DNA of 64,000 nt from Ulvibacter litoralis (GTDB lineage: Bacteria; Bacteroidota; Bacteroidia; Flavobacteriales; Flavobacteriaceae), in assembly GCF_900102055.1 (NCBI RefSeq), contig NZ_FNBA01000001.1, forward strand, positions 581,085 through 645,084, in the 5' to 3' direction. The translations under genes were made by a program, and so were the position numbers. Below are positions 4,931-28,108 of the stretch, piece after piece (positions within the stretch are counted from its first letter, which is position 1; every line of letters starts with the position of its first letter). The notes under the pieces were generated by a model, which had not been told where the DNA came from, did no database searches, and worked only from the letters and a program-made list of their open reading frames with translations.

Positions 4931-5365
4931 ATGAAACGTATTATATTCTCCCTGTTTTTATCCTTAACACTTTTAAGCTGTAATAAAGATGATTCTCCTA
5001 ACGACAACAATCCCTTCTTGTTAAGTCCGATTGTTAGCGTAAACTTAAACCTAAACTTACCGCAATACAATGACTTAAAATTTCCTGGAAATAGTATTGT
5101 TCTTCCCGGAGAAGGCATTCGAGGCATTGTGGTGTATTGTGTAAATTCTGAATTTTACACCGCCTTCGACCTAAGCGACCCAAATCATGTGCCTAGCTCT
5201 TGTTCGGGGATGACAATTTCTGGTATTGAAACCACGTGCCCTTGTACTTCAGATTCTAATAAATACGATATTGTTACAGGACAGCATAGATCCAATCCAG
5301 ATTTATACCCTATGCAACAATATCGCTCTATTAGAACAGGTGACAATATTCAAATCACCAATTAA
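4931..5365 (+). CDS. hypothetical lipoprotein (lipobox LLSC), Cys-rich
   Basis: The ORF runs 4907..5365. The likely start is MKRIIFSLFLSLTLLSCNKDD. The mature part carries several Cys/His residues (CVNSEF...SSCSGM...CPCTSD). Confidence 0.5.
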   Translation: MKRIIFSLFLSLTLLSCNKDDSPNDNNPFLLSPIVSVNLNLNLPQYNDLKFPGNSIVLPGEGIRGIVVYCVNSEFYTAFDLSDPNHVPSSCSGMTISGIETTCPCTSDSNKYDIVTGQHRSNPDLYPMQQYRSIRTGDNIQITN

Positions 5366-7539
5366 AATTTTACAGTAGCACCCACTAAAAAATTAATTTC
5401 AGCCTGCGGATAATAGCCTGCTCCTTCTATGGTCGTAACTTGTCCAGGAACGCTCCAGTCATCATCGTAGGTGTAGAAATATCCATTAGACACATACTTT
5501 GTGCTAAAGATGTTATTTACCAGTCCAGAGAATACTATTGATTGTACAACAGGCACATTGTCTAACGTATAGAAAATATTAAAGTCGTGGATAAAGTAAC
5601 TCTCCAATTTTGAAGCATCGCTGTCAATATTTCCCATATATTGCTCGCCTACAAACTTTGATAGTAATGAAAACTGCAACTTGTTAATAGGACTGTATTC
5701 AATTCTATTTCCAGCCACAATTCCGGGAGAGAAAGAGGTATTTGTAGTTCCTAGATTTACCAAACCACCATCTCTAGCAGTCACAAAGTCTAAATTTTTA
5801 TTCGTGCTTAAAGCAATGTTTGGAAACACACGTACTTGATTGGAAATACGCACTTCTGCATCCACTTCAAGTCCTAAACGATAACTTTTACCACTAGTAG
5901 CACGAATAGGCGCTCCTACATCATCTAGCGCTCCAGTAAGCACCAATTGATCTTTATAGTTCATATAAAAAAGGTTGGTATTTACTTTAACAGCTTCAGA
6001 AGCAGTTCGCCATCCTAATTCAAAATCGTCTAATTTTTCAGCCGTAAAAATGCCTTGTTCAAAATCGCTTTTACGAGGCTCTCTGTTTGCTTTTCCGTAG
6101 GAGAAATAAAACTGATTGGCATCGTTTAACTGAAATGAAGCCCCCGCTTTTGGGTTGAAAAAACTATACTTTTCACGAACTACTAACGGAAGTAAATCGG
6201 AGGTAATTCCGCTCGTTCTATAACTTACAAAACGTCCTTGAAGATCTCCAAATACACTCCATTGGTCATTTAAACGATAGGTCATTTTTCCGAAGACAGT
6301 GAATTCATTTTTATCTCCATTTCCACTATAATAACGGTCTCTAATCTCAGAACCTCCTGCATTTTGAGCCCAAATCACTTCTCCAAAATGATCCCCTCCG
6401 TAATAACTATAAAAAATTCCTCCCGTTACATCTACCCGAGTGTCTTTGTACGTTACGTTCGCATTGGCTGCGTAAAAGTTGTTGTTTAACCAACGACGAC
6501 GTATTAAATCTGTAGTATTTATGGTTTCACCCCCTATTTCGATTGGCTCAAACCCGTAATCTTCAAAAGATTCGTCTTCTTTATATTGCTCAAAATACCC
6601 TCTTCCGTAGGTATAATTAAGTGCTAGATTGGTGCTCCATTTATTATTGAAACGTTGATTCCAAAGCAACTGATAATGATCTTGCGAATAGTGATCTACT
6701 TCTTGGTCGTAAAACTGATCGTTGCCATCGGCATCGGTATAAGCCCCTGAAGGATTATAGGTTCTGTCGTCTCGCAACTTTGTTGAATCAATTCCATTCC
6801 ATGCTTGATACGTCTCTTCAGTTCCTCCAAAGGTGATGGCTTTAATTAAGGTGTTTTTTCCAACGTACGATCCTTGTAAGTAATACGATTTTAAATCACT
6901 TGTCGCTCTATCAATATACCCGTCTGACTGGATGGTAGACAACCGTCCCGCCAACTCGATGTGATCGCTTAACAATCCTGTGCTAAACTTTACATTGTGT
7001 TTGCGCGTGTTATACGAACCAATTGCATTTGAAATTTCGCCGTATGCCTTTTCTGAAACACCATCGGTAAGCATGTTTAAACTTGCTCCAAAAGCACCAG
7101 AACCGTTTGTTGACGTTCCAACACCACGTTGCAACTGCAAGCTTTGAACTGATGACGTAAAATCGGGTAAGTTTACAAAAAACGACCCCTGACTTTCGGC
7201 ATCGTTAAACGGAATTCCGTTTAACGTAACATTTACTCGTGAAGCATCGCTACCACGCACACGAATGTATGTATACCCTACACCAGCACCTGCATCACTC
7301 GTGGTGACAACCGATGGTAAGTACGAAAGCATATAAGGAATGTCTTGCCCTAGGTTTCGCTTCTCAAGCTCTTCTTTTTCTAAATTTGAATGGGTAATGG
7401 GCGAATCTGCATCTACCCGAACTGATTGAATTAATACTTCCTCTAGTTTTTCTACGGAAGTAGAATCTTTAACTTTTTCTTGCGAATAGCCATTTGCTAT
7501 TGCTGTTAAAACGGTAAGTGAAATGAATAATTTTTTCAT
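5362..7539 (-). CDS. TonB-dependent outer membrane receptor, likely a thiamin/TPP-regulated transporter
   Basis: The long ORF has a probable true start at MKKLFISLTVLTA (signal peptide). It contains a plug domain and a beta-barrel, and ends in the aromatic residue F. A TPP riboswitch lies immediately upstream. Confidence 0.85.
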   Translation of the reverse strand: MKKLFISLTVLTAIANGYSQEKVKDSTSVEKLEEVLIQSVRVDADSPITHSNLEKEELEKRNLGQDIPYMLSYLPSVVTTSDAGAGVGYTYIRVRGSDASRVNVTLNGIPFNDAESQGSFFVNLPDFTSSVQSLQLQRGVGTSTNGSGAFGASLNMLTDGVSEKAYGEISNAIGSYNTRKHNVKFSTGLLSDHIELAGRLSTIQSDGYIDRATSDLKSYYLQGSYVGKNTLIKAITFGGTEETYQAWNGIDSTKLRDDRTYNPSGAYTDADGNDQFYDQEVDHYSQDHYQLLWNQRFNNKWSTNLALNYTYGRGYFEQYKEDESFEDYGFEPIEIGGETINTTDLIRRRWLNNNFYAANANVTYKDTRVDVTGGIFYSYYGGDHFGEVIWAQNAGGSEIRDRYYSGNGDKNEFTVFGKMTYRLNDQWSVFGDLQGRFVSYRTSGITSDLLPLVVREKYSFFNPKAGASFQLNDANQFYFSYGKANREPRKSDFEQGIFTAEKLDDFELGWRTASEAVKVNTNLFYMNYKDQLVLTGALDDVGAPIRATSGKSYRLGLEVDAEVRISNQVRVFPNIALSTNKNLDFVTARDGGLVNLGTTNTSFSPGIVAGNRIEYSPINKLQFSLLSKFVGEQYMGNIDSDASKLESYFIHDFNIFYTLDNVPVVQSIVFSGLVNNIFSTKYVSNGYFYTYDDDWSVPGQVTTIEGAGYYPQAEINFLVGATVKF

Positions 7540-7667
7540 TCGTAAATAATAATTACGAATAAAAGGGGCGTTATTCTTTGTTAAGGTTAAATAAATTGTT
7601 TGCTTCCGCAGATACGATATCATTGGTTCGCATGGTCTAAAAAAATATCTGAAAGACATTCTCTTAG

Positions 7668-7752
7668 ACTTGGTTTCCTAAACAGCATTACCTGTTCAAG
7701 GTTCTATGGGTATAATCTCAGCTTTTTACGGCACCCCTTTGAGATGCCGCAA
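7668..7752 (-). ncRNA. TPP (thiamine pyrophosphate) riboswitch
   Basis: The minus strand reads ...GGGGTGCCGTAAAAAGCTGAGATTATACCCATAGAACCTTGAACAGGTAATGCTGTTTAGGAAACC. This contains the conserved THI-element blocks GGGGTGCC, GCUGAGA, ACCC, GAACCUGA..GG.UAAUGC and AGGAA, in the correct order and spacing. It sits in the leader of the TonB-dependent receptor. Confidence 0.8.
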
Positions 7753-7838
7753 ATATAACACAACTTTATTTTAATAGACATCCTTTTTTTATCAAAACCT
7801 TAATACTCGCCTGTTTTAATTGTGATTATTTTTGAAAG

Positions 7839-10289
7839 ATGCAGCAACCAAAAAACAAACTTACCCTAAAAATCATCCTTAGCTATTTGGTAATCTTAGC
7901 GTTGGCTGTATTTGTAAGTGCTTTTATTTATTCTGAATACAAGGCGTATATTCAGAATGCTTCCGAAAATTCATTGGACCAAAAGTTTATTGAAACTGGA
8001 ATGTTAATCAATTTGGTGTATGAAACGGATGGTTTTTCTCGCATTGCACTACTTACCGAAAAAGAAGAAGATTTTATAAAATACACCACGAAAGTGGATT
8101 CGCTTTACAATCAAATAGAAAACATTAAAAAACTCACCTCTAGTGCCTTTCAACTCAAACAATTGGATAGCGTAAAATCATTGTTGGAAGAAAAAACGCG
8201 AAACATAGAACAACTTCGTGTGTTAACGATTACCAGTAATAAAGATTCTTCGCTAGACGATATTCTGGATGAGATTAAAAAATTGGAAGAGACCATGGGA
8301 AAAAACTCCCTAGAAACCATGATTAAAAATCCTTCCATACTTTCTAAAAAAGAACGGAAAGTTTGGCAGTCGTATGTTGATTGGTTAAACGCAAGCACCC
8401 TCACCGACACCACAAAACTGAACACCAAAATGGTCGATTCTATGTTGGTCGCTTCGCGCTTTATTGTTTCTGAAGCTAAAAAAGAAAATTCGCGTATTCG
8501 GCAATCGTTGCAACAAAAAGAAAACGAATTGATTCGAAATGACCTTACCATTTCGGAACAATTACGTCAAATTATCGCAGCCTTAGATTTTGAAATTAGT
8601 AAAAACAACAATCTAGAGAAAGAACATCGCCTCGCCTCGATTCAACGCACTTCGTACACATTAAAGTTAGCGAGTATTGCAGCAGCGCTTATTATGCTAT
8701 TGTTTACCTACCTTATTCTCACTGACTTTTTTAAGGCTGAAAAATTTAAAACCAATCTCGCTGAAGCCAAACAATATTCTGAAGATTTATTAAAAAGCAG
8801 GGAGCAACTCATTTCTACGGTGAGTCACGATTTAAAAACGCCACTAAATACAATTTTAGGCTATACAGAGCTCATTGAAGACACGCCTCTTTCAGAAAAA
8901 CAACAACATTACAGCAGTCAAATTAGCACAAGCGCTACATTTATTTCGAAGTTGGTAAACGACTTGTTAGATTTTTCAAAACTGGAAGCTGGAAAACTCA
9001 CTATTGATGCGATTCCCTTTTCGTTGGAAAATTGCATTAACGACATTGCAAAAGCTTCAGAAGACATGTACGCTCAAAAAAATGTGTCGCTTTTGGTATC
9101 TATATCTGAAACTGTTCAGAACACATTTTACATTGGCGATCCGCTTCGCATTCAGCAAATAATACACAACCTTGTTGGAAACGCCTTTAAATTCACGGAA
9201 GAAGGCACGATTGAAATTTCAGTAACAGAGCACAAACAAACTGCTGAAACTGCCGTGCTTCAAATTAGTGTAAAAGATACGGGGATTGGTATTTCAAAAG
9301 AAAAACAACAACTTATTTTTAAAGAATTTACGCAAGCGGAAGAAGACACCGCGCCTAAATATGGTGGCTACGGATTGGGACTAGCCATTTCAAAAAAACT
9401 TAGTCAGTTACTCAACGGAAGTCTTACCGTAACCAGTAAACTAGAAGAAGGAAGTACCTTTACCTTAGAACTTCCTTTGAAAAAATCGAATCGAATCATT
9501 CCTAAAAAACAAGTTTCAAAGCAACAGGGCTTTTCAAAAATAAAAGGATTAATTCTAGACGACGATGCTACAATGCTGGAACTTCTTGGCGAAGTTTTAG
9601 CGCTACTCAATGTTGAAACGGAATTATATACCACTTTTACAGAACTTCAGAAAAGAGCGACATCCGACTTCGATTTTATACTTACCGATATTCAAATGCC
9701 CGATATGGATGGATTTACAGTCCTAAAAAAAATACAACAAGGCACCCTTTCGGCTTATTCACAACAGCCTATAATTGCTATGACAGGAAATAGGGCTATT
9801 GAAAAGAAAGTATACCTTGAAAAAGGGTTTTCAAACATGCTTCTGAAACCCTTTAGTAAAGATCAACTCGCGAAGCTATTAAGCGAGTTATTTCCCTCTA
9901 AAATTGAAATTAAAGCTGAAAATTCTGAAATACTTCAATCACCCAAACATGCAAATGAAGAATATAGTCTAGCGTTGTTATCTTCTTTTGTTGGAGACAA
10001 AGCGGCCTTAAAAGAAATTTTAAGTGAGTATTTAAATCAAACAAAAAAGAATCGGATTGAACTAGAAGAAGCTTTTCAAACAAAAGACTTTGAAACGATT
10101 AATTCAATAGCACATAAAATGCTTACAATGAAGCGTCAAATTGAAGCAAAACACATCCTACCAATCCTAGAACGACTTGAAAAAGCAACTTCAGAAACAA
10201 TTTCTGACAGTGAATTAAAAACGCTTTCAGAAACATTAAAAAAACACCTCAACAACCTTGTCACAGGACTTGAAAAGGAAATTTCTTAA
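7839..10289 (+). CDS. hybrid sensor histidine kinase / response regulator (TM - coiled coil - TM - HisKA - HATPase_c - REC - Hpt)
   Basis: 816-aa ORF. H-box SHDLKTPLNTILGYTELI. HATPase motifs DTGIGI and GYGLGL. REC domain with ILTDIQMPDMDG. The C-terminal part has an Hpt-like helix (AHKMLTMKRQIEAKH). Confidence 0.85.
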   Translation: MQQPKNKLTLKIILSYLVILALAVFVSAFIYSEYKAYIQNASENSLDQKFIETGMLINLVYETDGFSRIALLTEKEEDFIKYTTKVDSLYNQIENIKKLTSSAFQLKQLDSVKSLLEEKTRNIEQLRVLTITSNKDSSLDDILDEIKKLEETMGKNSLETMIKNPSILSKKERKVWQSYVDWLNASTLTDTTKLNTKMVDSMLVASRFIVSEAKKENSRIRQSLQQKENELIRNDLTISEQLRQIIAALDFEISKNNNLEKEHRLASIQRTSYTLKLASIAAALIMLLFTYLILTDFFKAEKFKTNLAEAKQYSEDLLKSREQLISTVSHDLKTPLNTILGYTELIEDTPLSEKQQHYSSQISTSATFISKLVNDLLDFSKLEAGKLTIDAIPFSLENCINDIAKASEDMYAQKNVSLLVSISETVQNTFYIGDPLRIQQIIHNLVGNAFKFTEEGTIEISVTEHKQTAETAVLQISVKDTGIGISKEKQQLIFKEFTQAEEDTAPKYGGYGLGLAISKKLSQLLNGSLTVTSKLEEGSTFTLELPLKKSNRIIPKKQVSKQQGFSKIKGLILDDDATMLELLGEVLALLNVETELYTTFTELQKRATSDFDFILTDIQMPDMDGFTVLKKIQQGTLSAYSQQPIIAMTGNRAIEKKVYLEKGFSNMLLKPFSKDQLAKLLSELFPSKIEIKAENSEILQSPKHANEEYSLALLSSFVGDKAALKEILSEYLNQTKKNRIELEEAFQTKDFETINSIAHKMLTMKRQIEAKHILPILERLEKATSETISDSELKTLSETLKKHLNNLVTGLEKEIS

Positions 10290-11644
10290 AGCTCGATTTG
10301 ATATTGTTCTAGTTTATTGTAAAGTGTTTTGCGGGTAATATTTAATAATTTTGCGGCGCGAGATTTGTTATTGCCGGCTTCTTTTAAAGCATTGATAATA
10401 AGTTGTTTTTCATTCGAATTTTTAGAAAAATCTTTCGGCGCTGCTTTCTTTTCAGAAGCTTCCATGACTTCTCTCGGAATCACATCCAACGGAATTAAAC
10501 TTGAGTTGGTAAGCAGTACAGACCGTTTTATTACATTTTTGAGTTCTCGCAAATTTCCAGGCCACGCGTATCTTTTAAAAGCTTCTTCCACTTGCTTTGA
10601 GAGTCCGATCACGTTTTTTCCCAACGAAGCATTGGCTTGTTCTAAAAAATAATGTGTAAACAGAAATAGATCTTCGGTACGCTCACGAAGCGAAGGAATC
10701 TGAATCGAAAATTCATTCAAACGGTGGTACAAATCTTCTCTAAAATTTCCTTCCGAAACGGCTTTCACCAAATCTTCGTTGGTCGCCGTTACAATGCGAA
10801 CATCCACTTCAATTTCTTTACTACTTCCAACCGGTTTAATTTTTCGTTCTTGAAGCGCACGTAACAATTGTATCTGGTTTTCGTACGAAAGATTTCCTAC
10901 TTCATCTAGAAAAAGAGTTCCGAGATGTGCGGCTTCAAAATGTCCTTTTTTATCGGTAATGGCTCCTGTAAAACTTCCTTTAATGTGTCCGAAAAACTCA
11001 CTTGCAGCAATCTCTTTCGGAATAGCACCGCAATCTACTGCTACAAAATTCTTGTCTTTACGATCACTAAAATTATGAATCGCATTGGCAGCAACCTCTT
11101 TTCCCGTTCCACTTTCACCTTGCAACAACACGTTCATTTGTGTAGGCCCCACCAATTTGAGATACTCATTAAACTTTTTAGAAACCCCACTATTTCCTGC
11201 TACAAAACCAGATTTTACCGTCTCTATTTCTTTCGCGGGTTGCTTTTTTTCTTCGGAAACATTTACGGGCACCTCTTTGTTTTCCGTTTCTAAAGCTTGC
11301 TCTATAATCATCACCAACTCTTCTGGGCGAAAGGGTTTTGATATATAATCTAACGCTCCTTTTTTAATAGCTTCTACGGCAGTTGAAACTTCTGCGTAGC
11401 CTGTCATTAAAATAGTTTGAGTTTTCTTGGCGTTTTTTCTTGAAAAATCTAGCAGTTCCAATCCCGAGCCATCTGGAAGTTGTAGATCGGTAATTAAAAG
11501 CTGATACTTTTGAGTTTCAATCTGAGTCTTCGCTTCTTCACTATTCGTGGCTATTTGAACCTCAAATTGACGACGCTCTAAAAAGTTAGCGATCATTTTT
11601 CCGAAGGCAATATCGTCTTCAACAATAAGAATTTTATTTTTCAT
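10286..11644 (-). CDS. sigma-54-dependent Fis-family response regulator (NtrC-like: REC - AAA+ - HTH)
   Basis: 452-aa ORF. The REC N-terminus is ILIVEDD...LLITDLQLPDGSG. Walker A is GESGTGKE. The GAFTGA-like loop is GSFTGA. The C-terminal Fis-type HTH is AAKLLNITRKTLYNKL. It is convergent with the hybrid HK and overlaps it by 4 bp. Confidence 0.9.
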   Translation of the reverse strand: MKNKILIVEDDIAFGKMIANFLERRQFEVQIATNSEEAKTQIETQKYQLLITDLQLPDGSGLELLDFSRKNAKKTQTILMTGYAEVSTAVEAIKKGALDYISKPFRPEELVMIIEQALETENKEVPVNVSEEKKQPAKEIETVKSGFVAGNSGVSKKFNEYLKLVGPTQMNVLLQGESGTGKEVAANAIHNFSDRKDKNFVAVDCGAIPKEIAASEFFGHIKGSFTGAITDKKGHFEAAHLGTLFLDEVGNLSYENQIQLLRALQERKIKPVGSSKEIEVDVRIVTATNEDLVKAVSEGNFREDLYHRLNEFSIQIPSLRERTEDLFLFTHYFLEQANASLGKNVIGLSKQVEEAFKRYAWPGNLRELKNVIKRSVLLTNSSLIPLDVIPREVMEASEKKAAPKDFSKNSNEKQLIINALKEAGNNKSRAAKLLNITRKTLYNKLEQYQIEL

Positions 11645-11704: not shown

Positions 11705-11735
11705 ATAAAAAAAGGGAGCCCTATTGGGCTCCCTA
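11705..11735 (-). terminator. rho-independent terminator downstream of the small secreted-protein gene
   Basis: GGGAGCCC-TATT-GGGCTCCC perfect stem, followed on the minus strand by TTTTTTT. Confidence 0.7.
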
Positions 11736-11766
11736 AGAAGTATTGAATCTAATTACCTGTAGTGAA

Positions 11767-18482: not shown

Positions 18483-18570
18483 CGCGAAAAGCTACGCAGT
18501 ACCGCGCTTTACACTGTATCTTTTTCTCGTGCCTCTAAAAAGGATGCCGTTTCAATCGCTAGTGCAAACC
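18483..18570 (+). repeat. dispersed intergenic element, copy 1 of 3 (variable hairpin followed by a conserved GGATGCCGYTTC box)
   Basis: Shares AGTACCGCGCTTT, a CTRTATCTTTTT segment and AGGATGCCGTTTCAATCGCT with the copies at 28024..28108 and 41785..41872. Confidence 0.6.
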
Positions 18571-28023: not shown

Positions 28024-28108
28024 ACTTCAGTAGGTCGGGTCATCCACTATATCTTTTTTGTCCCCTTCTGCGACAAAAAAGGATGCCGCTTCTACCCCTA
28101 ATGCAAAT
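28024..28108 (+). repeat. dispersed intergenic element, copy 2 of 3
   Basis: CTATATCTTTTTTGTCCCCTTCTGCGACAAAAAAGGATGCCGCTTCTACCCC. The hairpin is TTTTTTGTC/GACAAAAAA, followed by the conserved GGATGCCGCTTC box. Confidence 0.6.

Follow-up and report, generated by a model that had tools for sequence, protein, structure and literature searches.

The 5' leader of a TonB-dependent receptor gene of Ulvibacter litoralis (Bacteroidota; Flavobacteriaceae) carries a conserved RNA element that we consider likely to be a divergent THI-box riboswitch: one that lies at the extreme 5' end of a monocistronic receptor mRNA, is repressed by its ligand at the level of translation, and responds to a thiamin-family ligand with little discrimination of its phosphates. 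The gene lies in a stretch of 64,000 nucleotides (contig NZ_FNBA01000001.1 of assembly GCF_900102055.1, positions 581,085 to 645,084), hereafter the window, in which all coordinates without a locus name are given; (+) and (-) denote its strands. The original prediction had been a thiamin pyrophosphate (TPP) riboswitch controlling this receptor. That interpretation is partly supported, being right in kind (the element is of the thiamin type) and needing three corrections: the element is not a standard member of the Rfam family RF00059, falling 19 bits short of it and having no detectable P1 helix; specificity for TPP does not follow, as the phosphate loop has been replaced; and competition between the P2 strand and a downstream box, together with a start-codon hairpin, would stand in place of P1. 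The receptor gene and the parts of the aptamer are the following.

5362..7539 (-): TonB-dependent receptor of 725 amino acids (WP_175445402.1), the gene under the proposed regulation.
7673..7746 (-): THI-box aptamer in its variant form, placed by the RF00059 match (which spans 7657..7748), by the lineage model R1 and by covariation.
7708..7737 (-): pyrimidine-sensor arm (P2, a minimal P3 and J3/2), from sequence and covariation.
7677..7701 (-): remodelled P4/P5 arm, from covariation set against the Rfam consensus.

The THI-element core is present on the minus strand exactly where it had been predicted, at 7737..7675 (-), and reads GGGGUGCC at 7737-7730, GCUGAGA at 7722-7716, ACCC at 7711-7708, GAACCUUGAACAGGUAAUGCUG at 7703-7682 and AGGAA at 7679-7675. 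P2 consists of GGG (7737-7735) paired with CCC (7710-7708), plus U7733-A7713; P3 in the window has two pairs, G7732-C7721 and C7731-G7722, followed by a C.A mismatch; and J3/2 is CUGAGA (7721-7716). When 109 distinct aptamers with a short P3 were aligned and pairs were counted on a hand-written structure, 88.7% of cells were paired and 9 pairs were changed on both sides; none of 500 shuffles reached the observed pairing, and sliding the partners lowered it to 32-57%. The segments GGGGUGC, GCUGAGA and ACCC are invariant in all 109 aptamers, as are the UAAUG of loop L5 and the two basal pairs of P3 (G-C and C-G), into which L5 would dock as it does in RF00059, while the third P3 pair covaries (CG in 47, UA in 37 and UG in 22).

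It is the second arm that departs from the family. In P4, CCU (7701-7699) pairs with AGG (7679-7677), U7698 is bulged and G7697 faces U7680 as a G.U pair; P5 follows with five Watson-Crick pairs (7696-7692 with 7681-7685) and is capped by an L5 loop, GUAAUG (7691-7686), that contains the UAAU core of RF00059. The Rfam consensus for this arm, CCUg-AU-ccGG...CCgg-CG-uAGG, has a conserved AU (J4/5) and a conserved CG (J5/4), and the RF00059 alignment puts GA and -U of the window at these positions; the pyrophosphate-sensor loop of the family is not found there. Among the 109 aptamers the pairs that replace the canonical J4/5-J5/4 loop covary (AU 67 / GC 38 and AU 58 / GC 49), and the pair next to P4 is G.U in 54, with a bulged nucleotide as in the window, and G.A in 55. 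The P4/P5 junction has been remade as one continuous helix, and this helix covaries. In solved TPP riboswitches it is the C and G of J5/4 that directly contact the beta-phosphate (PMC6414600), and judging from the aligned positions these canonical contacts are gone from the variant aptamer.

The element is widely shared. A genome search with the receptor recovered 80 orthologous loci in Flavobacteriaceae (52-81% protein identity), and the aptamer (GGGGTGC...CTGAGA, then GAAC(C/T)T 17 nucleotides on) lies upstream of the gene in 77 of them; the other 3 loci contain no upstream sequence. When metagenomes were scanned with a pattern that singles out the variant P4/P5 arm, at least 120 loci matched, nearly all of which have CTGAGA exactly 17 nucleotides upstream of the arm pattern and GGGGTGC before it. 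Among the matches listed, downstream open reading frames (ORFs) were readable in 104 loci: 101 encode receptor homologues (31-78% identity), two are thiS-thiC (loci L133 and L160), and one is a short N-terminal fragment. Because it stands upstream of 77 of 80 orthologues and recurs in at least 120 metagenome contigs, this is a leader element conserved far beyond chance, and the claim that a THI-box aptamer occupies the receptor leader is borne out by conservation and covariation alike. Since it precedes thiS-thiC besides receptor homologues, the variant aptamer is tied to thiamin metabolism, and the association with thiamin biosynthesis or transport genes that belongs to RF00059 is thus present. 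In the two thiS-thiC loci the aptamer occupies L133:3174-3269 (-) and L160:148-238 (+).

When 5000..8500 was compared permissively with all 4227 Rfam families, RF00059 (TPP) was the sole family with E<=1, matching 7748..7657 (-) with 35.2 bits and an E-value of 2e-4; the Rfam scan of the whole window gave no match above the gathering score in the receptor leader region. The original prediction had named a score below the RF00059 gathering threshold (54.3 bits) as its refutation, and on that count it formally fails; for this lineage, however, the criterion is a poor one, because almost all conserved relatives also score below the threshold. We scored 48 of these (18 genome loci, 20 metagenome aptamers and 10 further loci), and only 2 of the 48, which range from 37.6 to 56.2 bits, are at or above the gathering score: L045 (56.2 bits), alone among the genome loci, and L160 (54.3 bits), at the top of the metagenome aptamers, whose scores run from 37.6 to 54.3; none of the 10 further loci is above it. 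About 95% of the variant aptamers tested therefore go undetected at the Rfam default threshold. The lineage model R1 gives the window aptamer 78.2 bits, the window sequence being itself among the training set. With R1 there is no second aptamer copy in the window, where its only other match (11705-11749 (+), 9.7 bits, E 0.61) is regarded as noise, and no canonical TPP element was found elsewhere on the same contigs in 138 kb scanned.

No P1 helix of the RF00059 kind was found: Rfam flags 4 of the 5 P1 pairs in the window as non-standard, and in 170 distinct leaders the 5' hexamer has a complementarity of 3.54 to the 32 nucleotides that follow the aptamer, against 3.78 for shuffled sequence. 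An AUCUC/GAGA(A)U pairing in the window (-4.6 kcal/mol) was considered as P1 and not credited, the 170-leader complementarity being no better than shuffled. P3a is absent from the variant aptamers, and P3 varies from 2 bp to about 45 bp among the orthologues. In Aequorivita and relatives (L003-L021, L051 and L074) P3 (at about 2750-2835) is enlarged to 60-105 nucleotides and AT-rich, and the short tandemly repeated units of which it consists, such as GTTATGA / CTCATAA, give long near-perfect hairpins. The extreme 5' end of the leader, AUCUCA (7745-7740), is perfectly complementary to UGAGAU (7720-7715) of the ligand-binding J3/2; a helix between them could, in the apo state, hide J3/2 and expose GGGG, both strands being invariant so that no covariation signal is possible. 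The 5' UCUC is kept in Flavobacteriaceae receptor leaders and not in the thiS-thiC or distant receptor leaders.

Around the aptamer, the features that would set where the transcript begins and how the element acts on the gene are these.

7750..7757 (-): Bacteroidetes-type -7 box TATATTTG, read from the sequence.
7636..7670 (-): mid-leader hairpin GUCUAAGAGAAUGUCU-UUC-AGAUAUUUUUUUAGAC, predicted at -15.7 kcal/mol.
7561..7577 (-): conserved box AGAAUAACGCCCCUUUU, unique in the window and found once per locus.
7534..7564 (-): predicted start-codon-sequestering hairpin, from energies and compensatory changes.

The -7 promoter consensus of Bacteroides is TAnnTTTG. Given the -7 box at 7757-7750, transcription probably starts near A7745, which would leave the aptamer about 5-8 nucleotides from the 5' end of the mRNA. 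The orthologous leaders keep the order TTTG-N5-(N)UCUC-A3-6-GGGGUGC, with the -7 box at a fixed distance.

Nearly every Flavobacteriaceae leader contains a second conserved module, made of AGAAUAA-NN-CCYC-U4-5-AUUCG, a variable loop, and a 3' arm that contains the start codon; in the window this box and hairpin occupy 7577-7534 (-), just before the start codon. The box has a single match in the window, where 0 are expected by chance, and each locus has one copy of it, invariably ahead of the receptor start. The CCCCUUUU box is complementary to the AAAGGGG strand of the aptamer: CGCCCCUUU (7570-7562) matches the aptamer 5' strand AAAGGGGUG (7740-7732) over 9 bp, this duplex is predicted at -14.8 kcal/mol and P2 at -7.2, and the unconstrained minimum-free-energy fold from the inferred transcription start includes the long-range GGGG/CCCC helix. 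CCYC is almost always preceded by A or G, making a pair with the U after GGGG possible, and the length of the aptamer A-run tracks that of the box U-run (r=0.72, not corrected for phylogeny). L133 and L160 also have a box of the CCUC(C)UUUU type, immediately ahead of the start of thiS, and that of L160, ACCUCCUUUU, resembles the 3' end of 16S rRNA.

The hairpin pairs UUUUAUUCGUAA (7564-7553) with UUACGAAUGAAA (7545-7534), so that the AUG (7539-7537) faces U7559, A7560 and U7561; it is predicted at -10.8 kcal/mol when whole and at -6.9 after withdrawal of the U-run. Of 90 distinct leaders, 86 have the AUG paired to this same UAU within the box, and the inner stem shows compensatory changes (UCGUA/UACGA, UUGUA/UACAA, UCGAUUAU/AUAAUCG and UCGAAU/AUUCGA). 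It is conservation and these changes, and not the shuffle control, that constitute the evidence for the hairpin, because 57% of shuffles also pair the AUG, the sequence being AU-rich. GAAUAA (7576-7571) is in addition complementary to UUAUUC (7562-7557), and this complementarity is conserved. An anti-sequestor hairpin formed by the two, with CCCC in its loop and a pseudoknot to GGGG, is retained as no more than a possibility: it reaches only -2.7 kcal/mol alone and is incompatible with the 9-bp duplex.

We hypothesize that these parts work as follows. Without ligand, the aptamer 5' strand would pair with the box in a duplex that beats P2, and this duplex would take the U-run from the start-codon hairpin, so that the codons right after the AUG are freed and translation is allowed. 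With ligand, the GGGG strand would be held in P2, the box would be freed, and the full hairpin would close over the AUG, repressing translation; the receptor would most likely be shut off at a high cellular thiamin pool. The switching strand would be the 5' strand of P2 with its A-run, and not P1. Because the two states differ by few kcal/mol, ligand binding could tip the choice between them.

That the switch should be an OFF switch is suggested by other loci. In L060, a Bacteroidia metagenome-assembled genome (2767-3000), the box is kept (CUCCUUUUUAUUCGUA), and CUCCUUUU pairs with a Shine-Dalgarno-like AAAAGGAG just upstream of the AUG, not with the AUG. In the distant homologues L090 and L143 the AUG comes 3 nucleotides after the aptamer and is complementary to its 5' strand (UCAUU/AAUGA), a layout that, as read from these sequences, is the classical ligand-bound OFF arrangement. 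These two cases and the translational riboswitches of B. thetaiotaomicron would support the proposed logic. More generally, only 3-5 nucleotides separate aptamer and AUG in distant receptor homologues (31-40% identity), which is like what has been reported for the transport operons of B. thetaiotaomicron.

Transcriptional control would be added in many relatives by a terminator that lies between the aptamer and the box; this component appears weak in the window. Hairpins followed by a U-run, at the mid-leader position, form terminators in Aequorivita, L017 and L030, some with CCCC in the 5' arm, and such a CCCC could be captured by the same GGGG strand of the aptamer. A consensus terminator scan of the window leader found no terminator. 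The mid-leader hairpin at 7670-7636 is not convincing as one, since its own U-run is buried and just -2.5 kcal/mol of upper stem precedes the U-run; this hairpin, which is specific to the lineage, might serve as a spacer or as a weak terminator.

Several observations weigh against a translational thiamin riboswitch in this leader. The Rfam score of 35.2 bits is 19 bits below the RF00059 gathering score of 54.3. The P3 of the window has just 2 bp, with C.A at the third pair, a mismatch found in 3 of the 109 aptamers. Beside the receptor, the window and those related loci that were inspected contain no pnuT, tnr3, tenA or thi genes. The core of the start-codon hairpin is predicted in both states, which differ by 3-4 bp only, and because this core persists the size of the translational effect is uncertain. 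Lastly, the gap between aptamer and AUG is 118 nucleotides, with no convincing terminator in the window, and by a rule of thumb from Bacteroides a gap of more than 40 nucleotides predicts transcriptional control (bioRxiv 10.1101/867226).

As to the ligand, the gene associations indicate that the signal is a thiamin-pathway compound, because the receptor family is tied to the aptamer across a wide range of Bacteroidota and the aptamer is also found before thiS-thiC. Specificity for TPP cannot be assumed, because base pairs have replaced the phosphate-contacting J4/5-J5/4 loop. McCown et al. (2017) described, with reference to Roth et al. (in preparation), many widespread bacterial TPP variants whose P4-P5 pyrophosphate core is mutated and which bind thiamin with about the same affinity as thiamin monophosphate (TMP) and TPP (PMC5473149). 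The window aptamer, in its RF00059 alignment and covariation, fits this description, so that the two forms may well be one, the comparison being by description only; in the papers searched we found no later account of the P4-P5 variants, and no sequences or consensus for them. Recognition is probably mainly through the aminopyrimidine ring, with thiamin, TMP and TPP read with little discrimination.

A stronger claim would be that the element forms a distinct THI-box subclass, one that has lost pyrophosphate recognition, reads unphosphorylated thiamin or a pyrimidine vitamer and not TPP, and works without P1 by setting the P2 strand and A-run against a CCCCUUUU box that in turn gates a start-codon hairpin; we advance this only tentatively, as a good deal less probable than a thiamin-family switch with little phosphate discrimination. 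Somewhat less probable again is the opposite view, that this is an ordinary TPP-specific riboswitch whose P4/P5 differences are neutral lineage drift, whose pyrophosphate is still bound (for example, through Mg2+ and the retained G by CCU), and whose low score stems from the lack of P1 and P3a and the short P3. All nucleotides of the pyrimidine pocket and of L5 are indeed canonical, L133 and L160 have this very arm before thiS-thiC, for which sensing of the end product TPP is the usual logic, the gathering score is attained by a few relatives (L045 with 56.2, L160 with 54.3), and the G.U by CCU, which resembles the canonical closing pair of P4, occurs in about half of the aptamers including that of the window. 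What makes us doubt this view is that the J5/4 nucleotides, two in number, which touch the beta-phosphate directly in solved structures (PMC6414600) lack equivalents here, where the positions are Watson-Crick paired and covary, and that P4-P5 core variants, according to McCown et al., no longer discriminate between thiamin, TMP and TPP (PMC5473149).

The canonical pocket can be turned to another end: with the pyrimidine pocket alone strictly canonical and the second arm rebuilt, the aptamer might have been re-tuned to a different thiamin-related compound, such as hydroxymethylpyrimidine (HMP), aminomethylpyrimidine (AmMP) or another pyrimidine vitamer, which the receptor would then import instead of intact thiamin. 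Salvage of pyrimidine vitamers is widespread in marine bacteria (PMC10881298), and control of thiC, the HMP phosphate synthase gene, in L133 and L160 would fit a pyrimidine signal too. We nevertheless regard this as improbable, since the P4/P5 arm and L5 are strongly constrained, as expected if a two-part ligand is still clamped, the receptor has no linked salvage genes (tenA, thiD or thiM), and the one published remark about variants of this sort indicates thiamin itself. Least credible of all, to the point of being scarcely worth entertaining, is that no small molecule is sensed and that the leader, above all the box and the AUG hairpin, is a protein or small-RNA target with the THI-like part a structural relic. 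Conservation of the box and the 5' arm of the hairpin in sequence, and not in structure alone, would accord with such a target, as would a hairpin core predicted in both aptamer states; yet the ligand-contacting nucleotides of the pyrimidine pocket are all invariant in more than 100 distinct sequences while non-contact stems covary, a pattern that marks a functioning aptamer, the box and the aptamer strand are complementary and have run lengths that track each other, and the element also precedes thiS-thiC. A divergent THI-box riboswitch that recognises the thiamin family and represses translation thus stays the reading that we prefer.

Compared with RF00059 and its Escherichia coli example thiM, this element shares the two-arm aptamer, with GGGGUGC..GCUGAGA..ACCC (P2-J3/2-P3) and a P4-P5 arm capped by a (G/A)UAAUG loop; like thiM it has no P3a, lies in a 5' leader and has sequestration of the start region as its likely output. 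It differs from RF00059 in having no detectable P1, in its P3 of 2 bp, in the conversion of the AU/CG internal loop into covarying pairs and a bulge, and in the proposed use of the P2 5' strand and A-run, not P1, as the switching strand. A thiamin-pathway riboswitch that senses a compound other than TPP is also known in the HMP pyrophosphate (HMP-PP) riboswitch (the thiS motif of Atilho et al. 2019), reportedly a small aptamer embedded in an intrinsic terminator and so wholly different in architecture from the two-arm THI-box here; the window element does not belong to it, no Rfam family except TPP having been found at E<=1 in 5000..8500.

The nearest counterpart for the whole arrangement is OMthi (BT2390) of B. 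thetaiotaomicron, a TonB-dependent receptor preceded by a riboswitch; when this receptor is lost together with either biosynthesis or pnuT, growth at low thiamin is impaired (PMC5613172). Its TPP riboswitch acts on translation and lies less than 5 nucleotides from the gene (PMC5613172; bioRxiv 10.1101/867226). OMthi and pnuT-tnr3 of Bacteroides (Costliow & Degnan 2017; Costliow, Degnan & Vanderpool 2019 preprint) come from the same phylum, and in OMthi, as in the window, a THI-box stands before a TonB-dependent receptor (in OMthi one of about 740 amino acids with an implied role in thiamin uptake) and control is translational, as we propose for the window receptor. The differences are that the aptamer is less than 5 nucleotides from the start in B. 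thetaiotaomicron but 118 nucleotides from it here, where it would act through a separate box and hairpin, and that the receptor here is unlinked to pnuT or tnr3; the likeness is one of architecture and THI-box. A second counterpart is omr1, a putative TonB-dependent B1 transporter with a nearby riboswitch in marine Flavobacteriales and SAR86 (PMC10881298), which is the same kind of pairing; surveys of omr1 call riboswitches with RF00059, and most elements of the window form would be missed at its gathering score. The window receptor, like these, has the THI-box immediately upstream, and on this analogy the best reading is that it is a putative thiamin receptor of the OMthi/omr1 type. With OMthi (PMC5613172; bioRxiv 10.1101/867226) and omr1 (PMC10881298) as precedents, thiamin-linked control of an outer-membrane importer, as first proposed for this gene, is the most sensible interpretation.

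The receptor gene itself needs its start codon set correctly. The mechanical ORF covers 5362..7659 (-), encoding 765 amino acids, and its first ATG (7657-7659) lies inside the leader, just past the aptamer core and within the Rfam match. The ATG at 7539 gives the 725-amino-acid receptor with the N-terminus MKKLFISLTVLTAIANGYSQ, which is signal-peptide-like, and this form is identical to NCBI protein WP_175445402.1 ("TonB-dependent receptor", Ulvibacter litoralis); the start at MKKLFIS, in preference to the upstream Met in the leader, had been predicted correctly. The 765-amino-acid automatic gene call is present in Logan assemblies (P0002), which means that some pipelines mis-start the receptor gene. 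Pfam places the Plug domain PF07715 (1e-11) and the TonB_dep_Rec_b-barrel PF00593 (5e-21) in the protein, the plug and 22-strand barrel of TonB-dependent receptor architecture. The database names are generic, the receptor being annotated merely as a generic or 'iron complex' receptor; a search of NCBIfam with it gave just a partial match to BtuB, weak at 32 bits where the cut-off is 600, and a search of the PDB gave no sequence relative.

Downstream of the receptor, on the opposite strand, is the Cys-rich lipoprotein gene that the original prediction had noted.

4931..5365 (+): convergent lipoprotein gene of 144 amino acids, with the lipobox LLSC, 5 Cys and the motif C..H...C.C.

Its stop overlaps the receptor stop by 4 nucleotides, and it is because this next gene is convergent with overlapping stops that we agree in regarding the receptor as monocistronic. 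UniRef names for the lipoprotein resemble a Rieske/ferredoxin subunit. The gene adjoins the receptor in 74 of the 80 orthologous loci, and was considered as part of the receptor system; it was rejected as such, since it stays with greA where insertions part it from the receptor (L035, L040 and L047). On the other side, divergent from the receptor promoter, is a hybrid histidine kinase (HisKA, HATPase and receiver; 7839-10289 (+)), itself convergent with a sigma-54-dependent response regulator (10286-11644 (-)); the pair is syntenic in many, not all, orthologous loci, and no thiamin link is evident. Farther away, Flavo-1 RNAs (RF01705) occur at 18496-18567 (-) and 28029-28106 (-), with 44.0 and 42.7 bits against a gathering score of 42, and more copies of Flavo-1 are found in the flanks of the related loci L053, L115 and L134.

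THI-boxes before TonB-dependent receptors are the main genomic marker of B1 scavenging in Bacteroidota, in the gut and in the ocean. Control of B1 scavenging by thiamin riboswitches is known; poorly documented is a variant subclass with a systematic Rfam false negative and a rebuilt phosphate arm. The form found in Flavobacteriaceae will escape annotation pipelines, and metagenomic surveys of B1, that apply RF00059 with the default threshold. The rebuilt arm, consistent and covarying, offers a concrete sequence set for the TPP variants of 'relaxed specificity' that have so far been mentioned in passing, and the box and hairpin would provide a clean example of a platform for translational control in a phylum without Shine-Dalgarno pairing. 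If the element should prove to be a distinct subclass, receptor expression in abundant marine Flavobacteria would follow a pool other than the coenzyme, and surveys of B1 scavenging based on RF00059 would systematically undercount these Flavobacteria.

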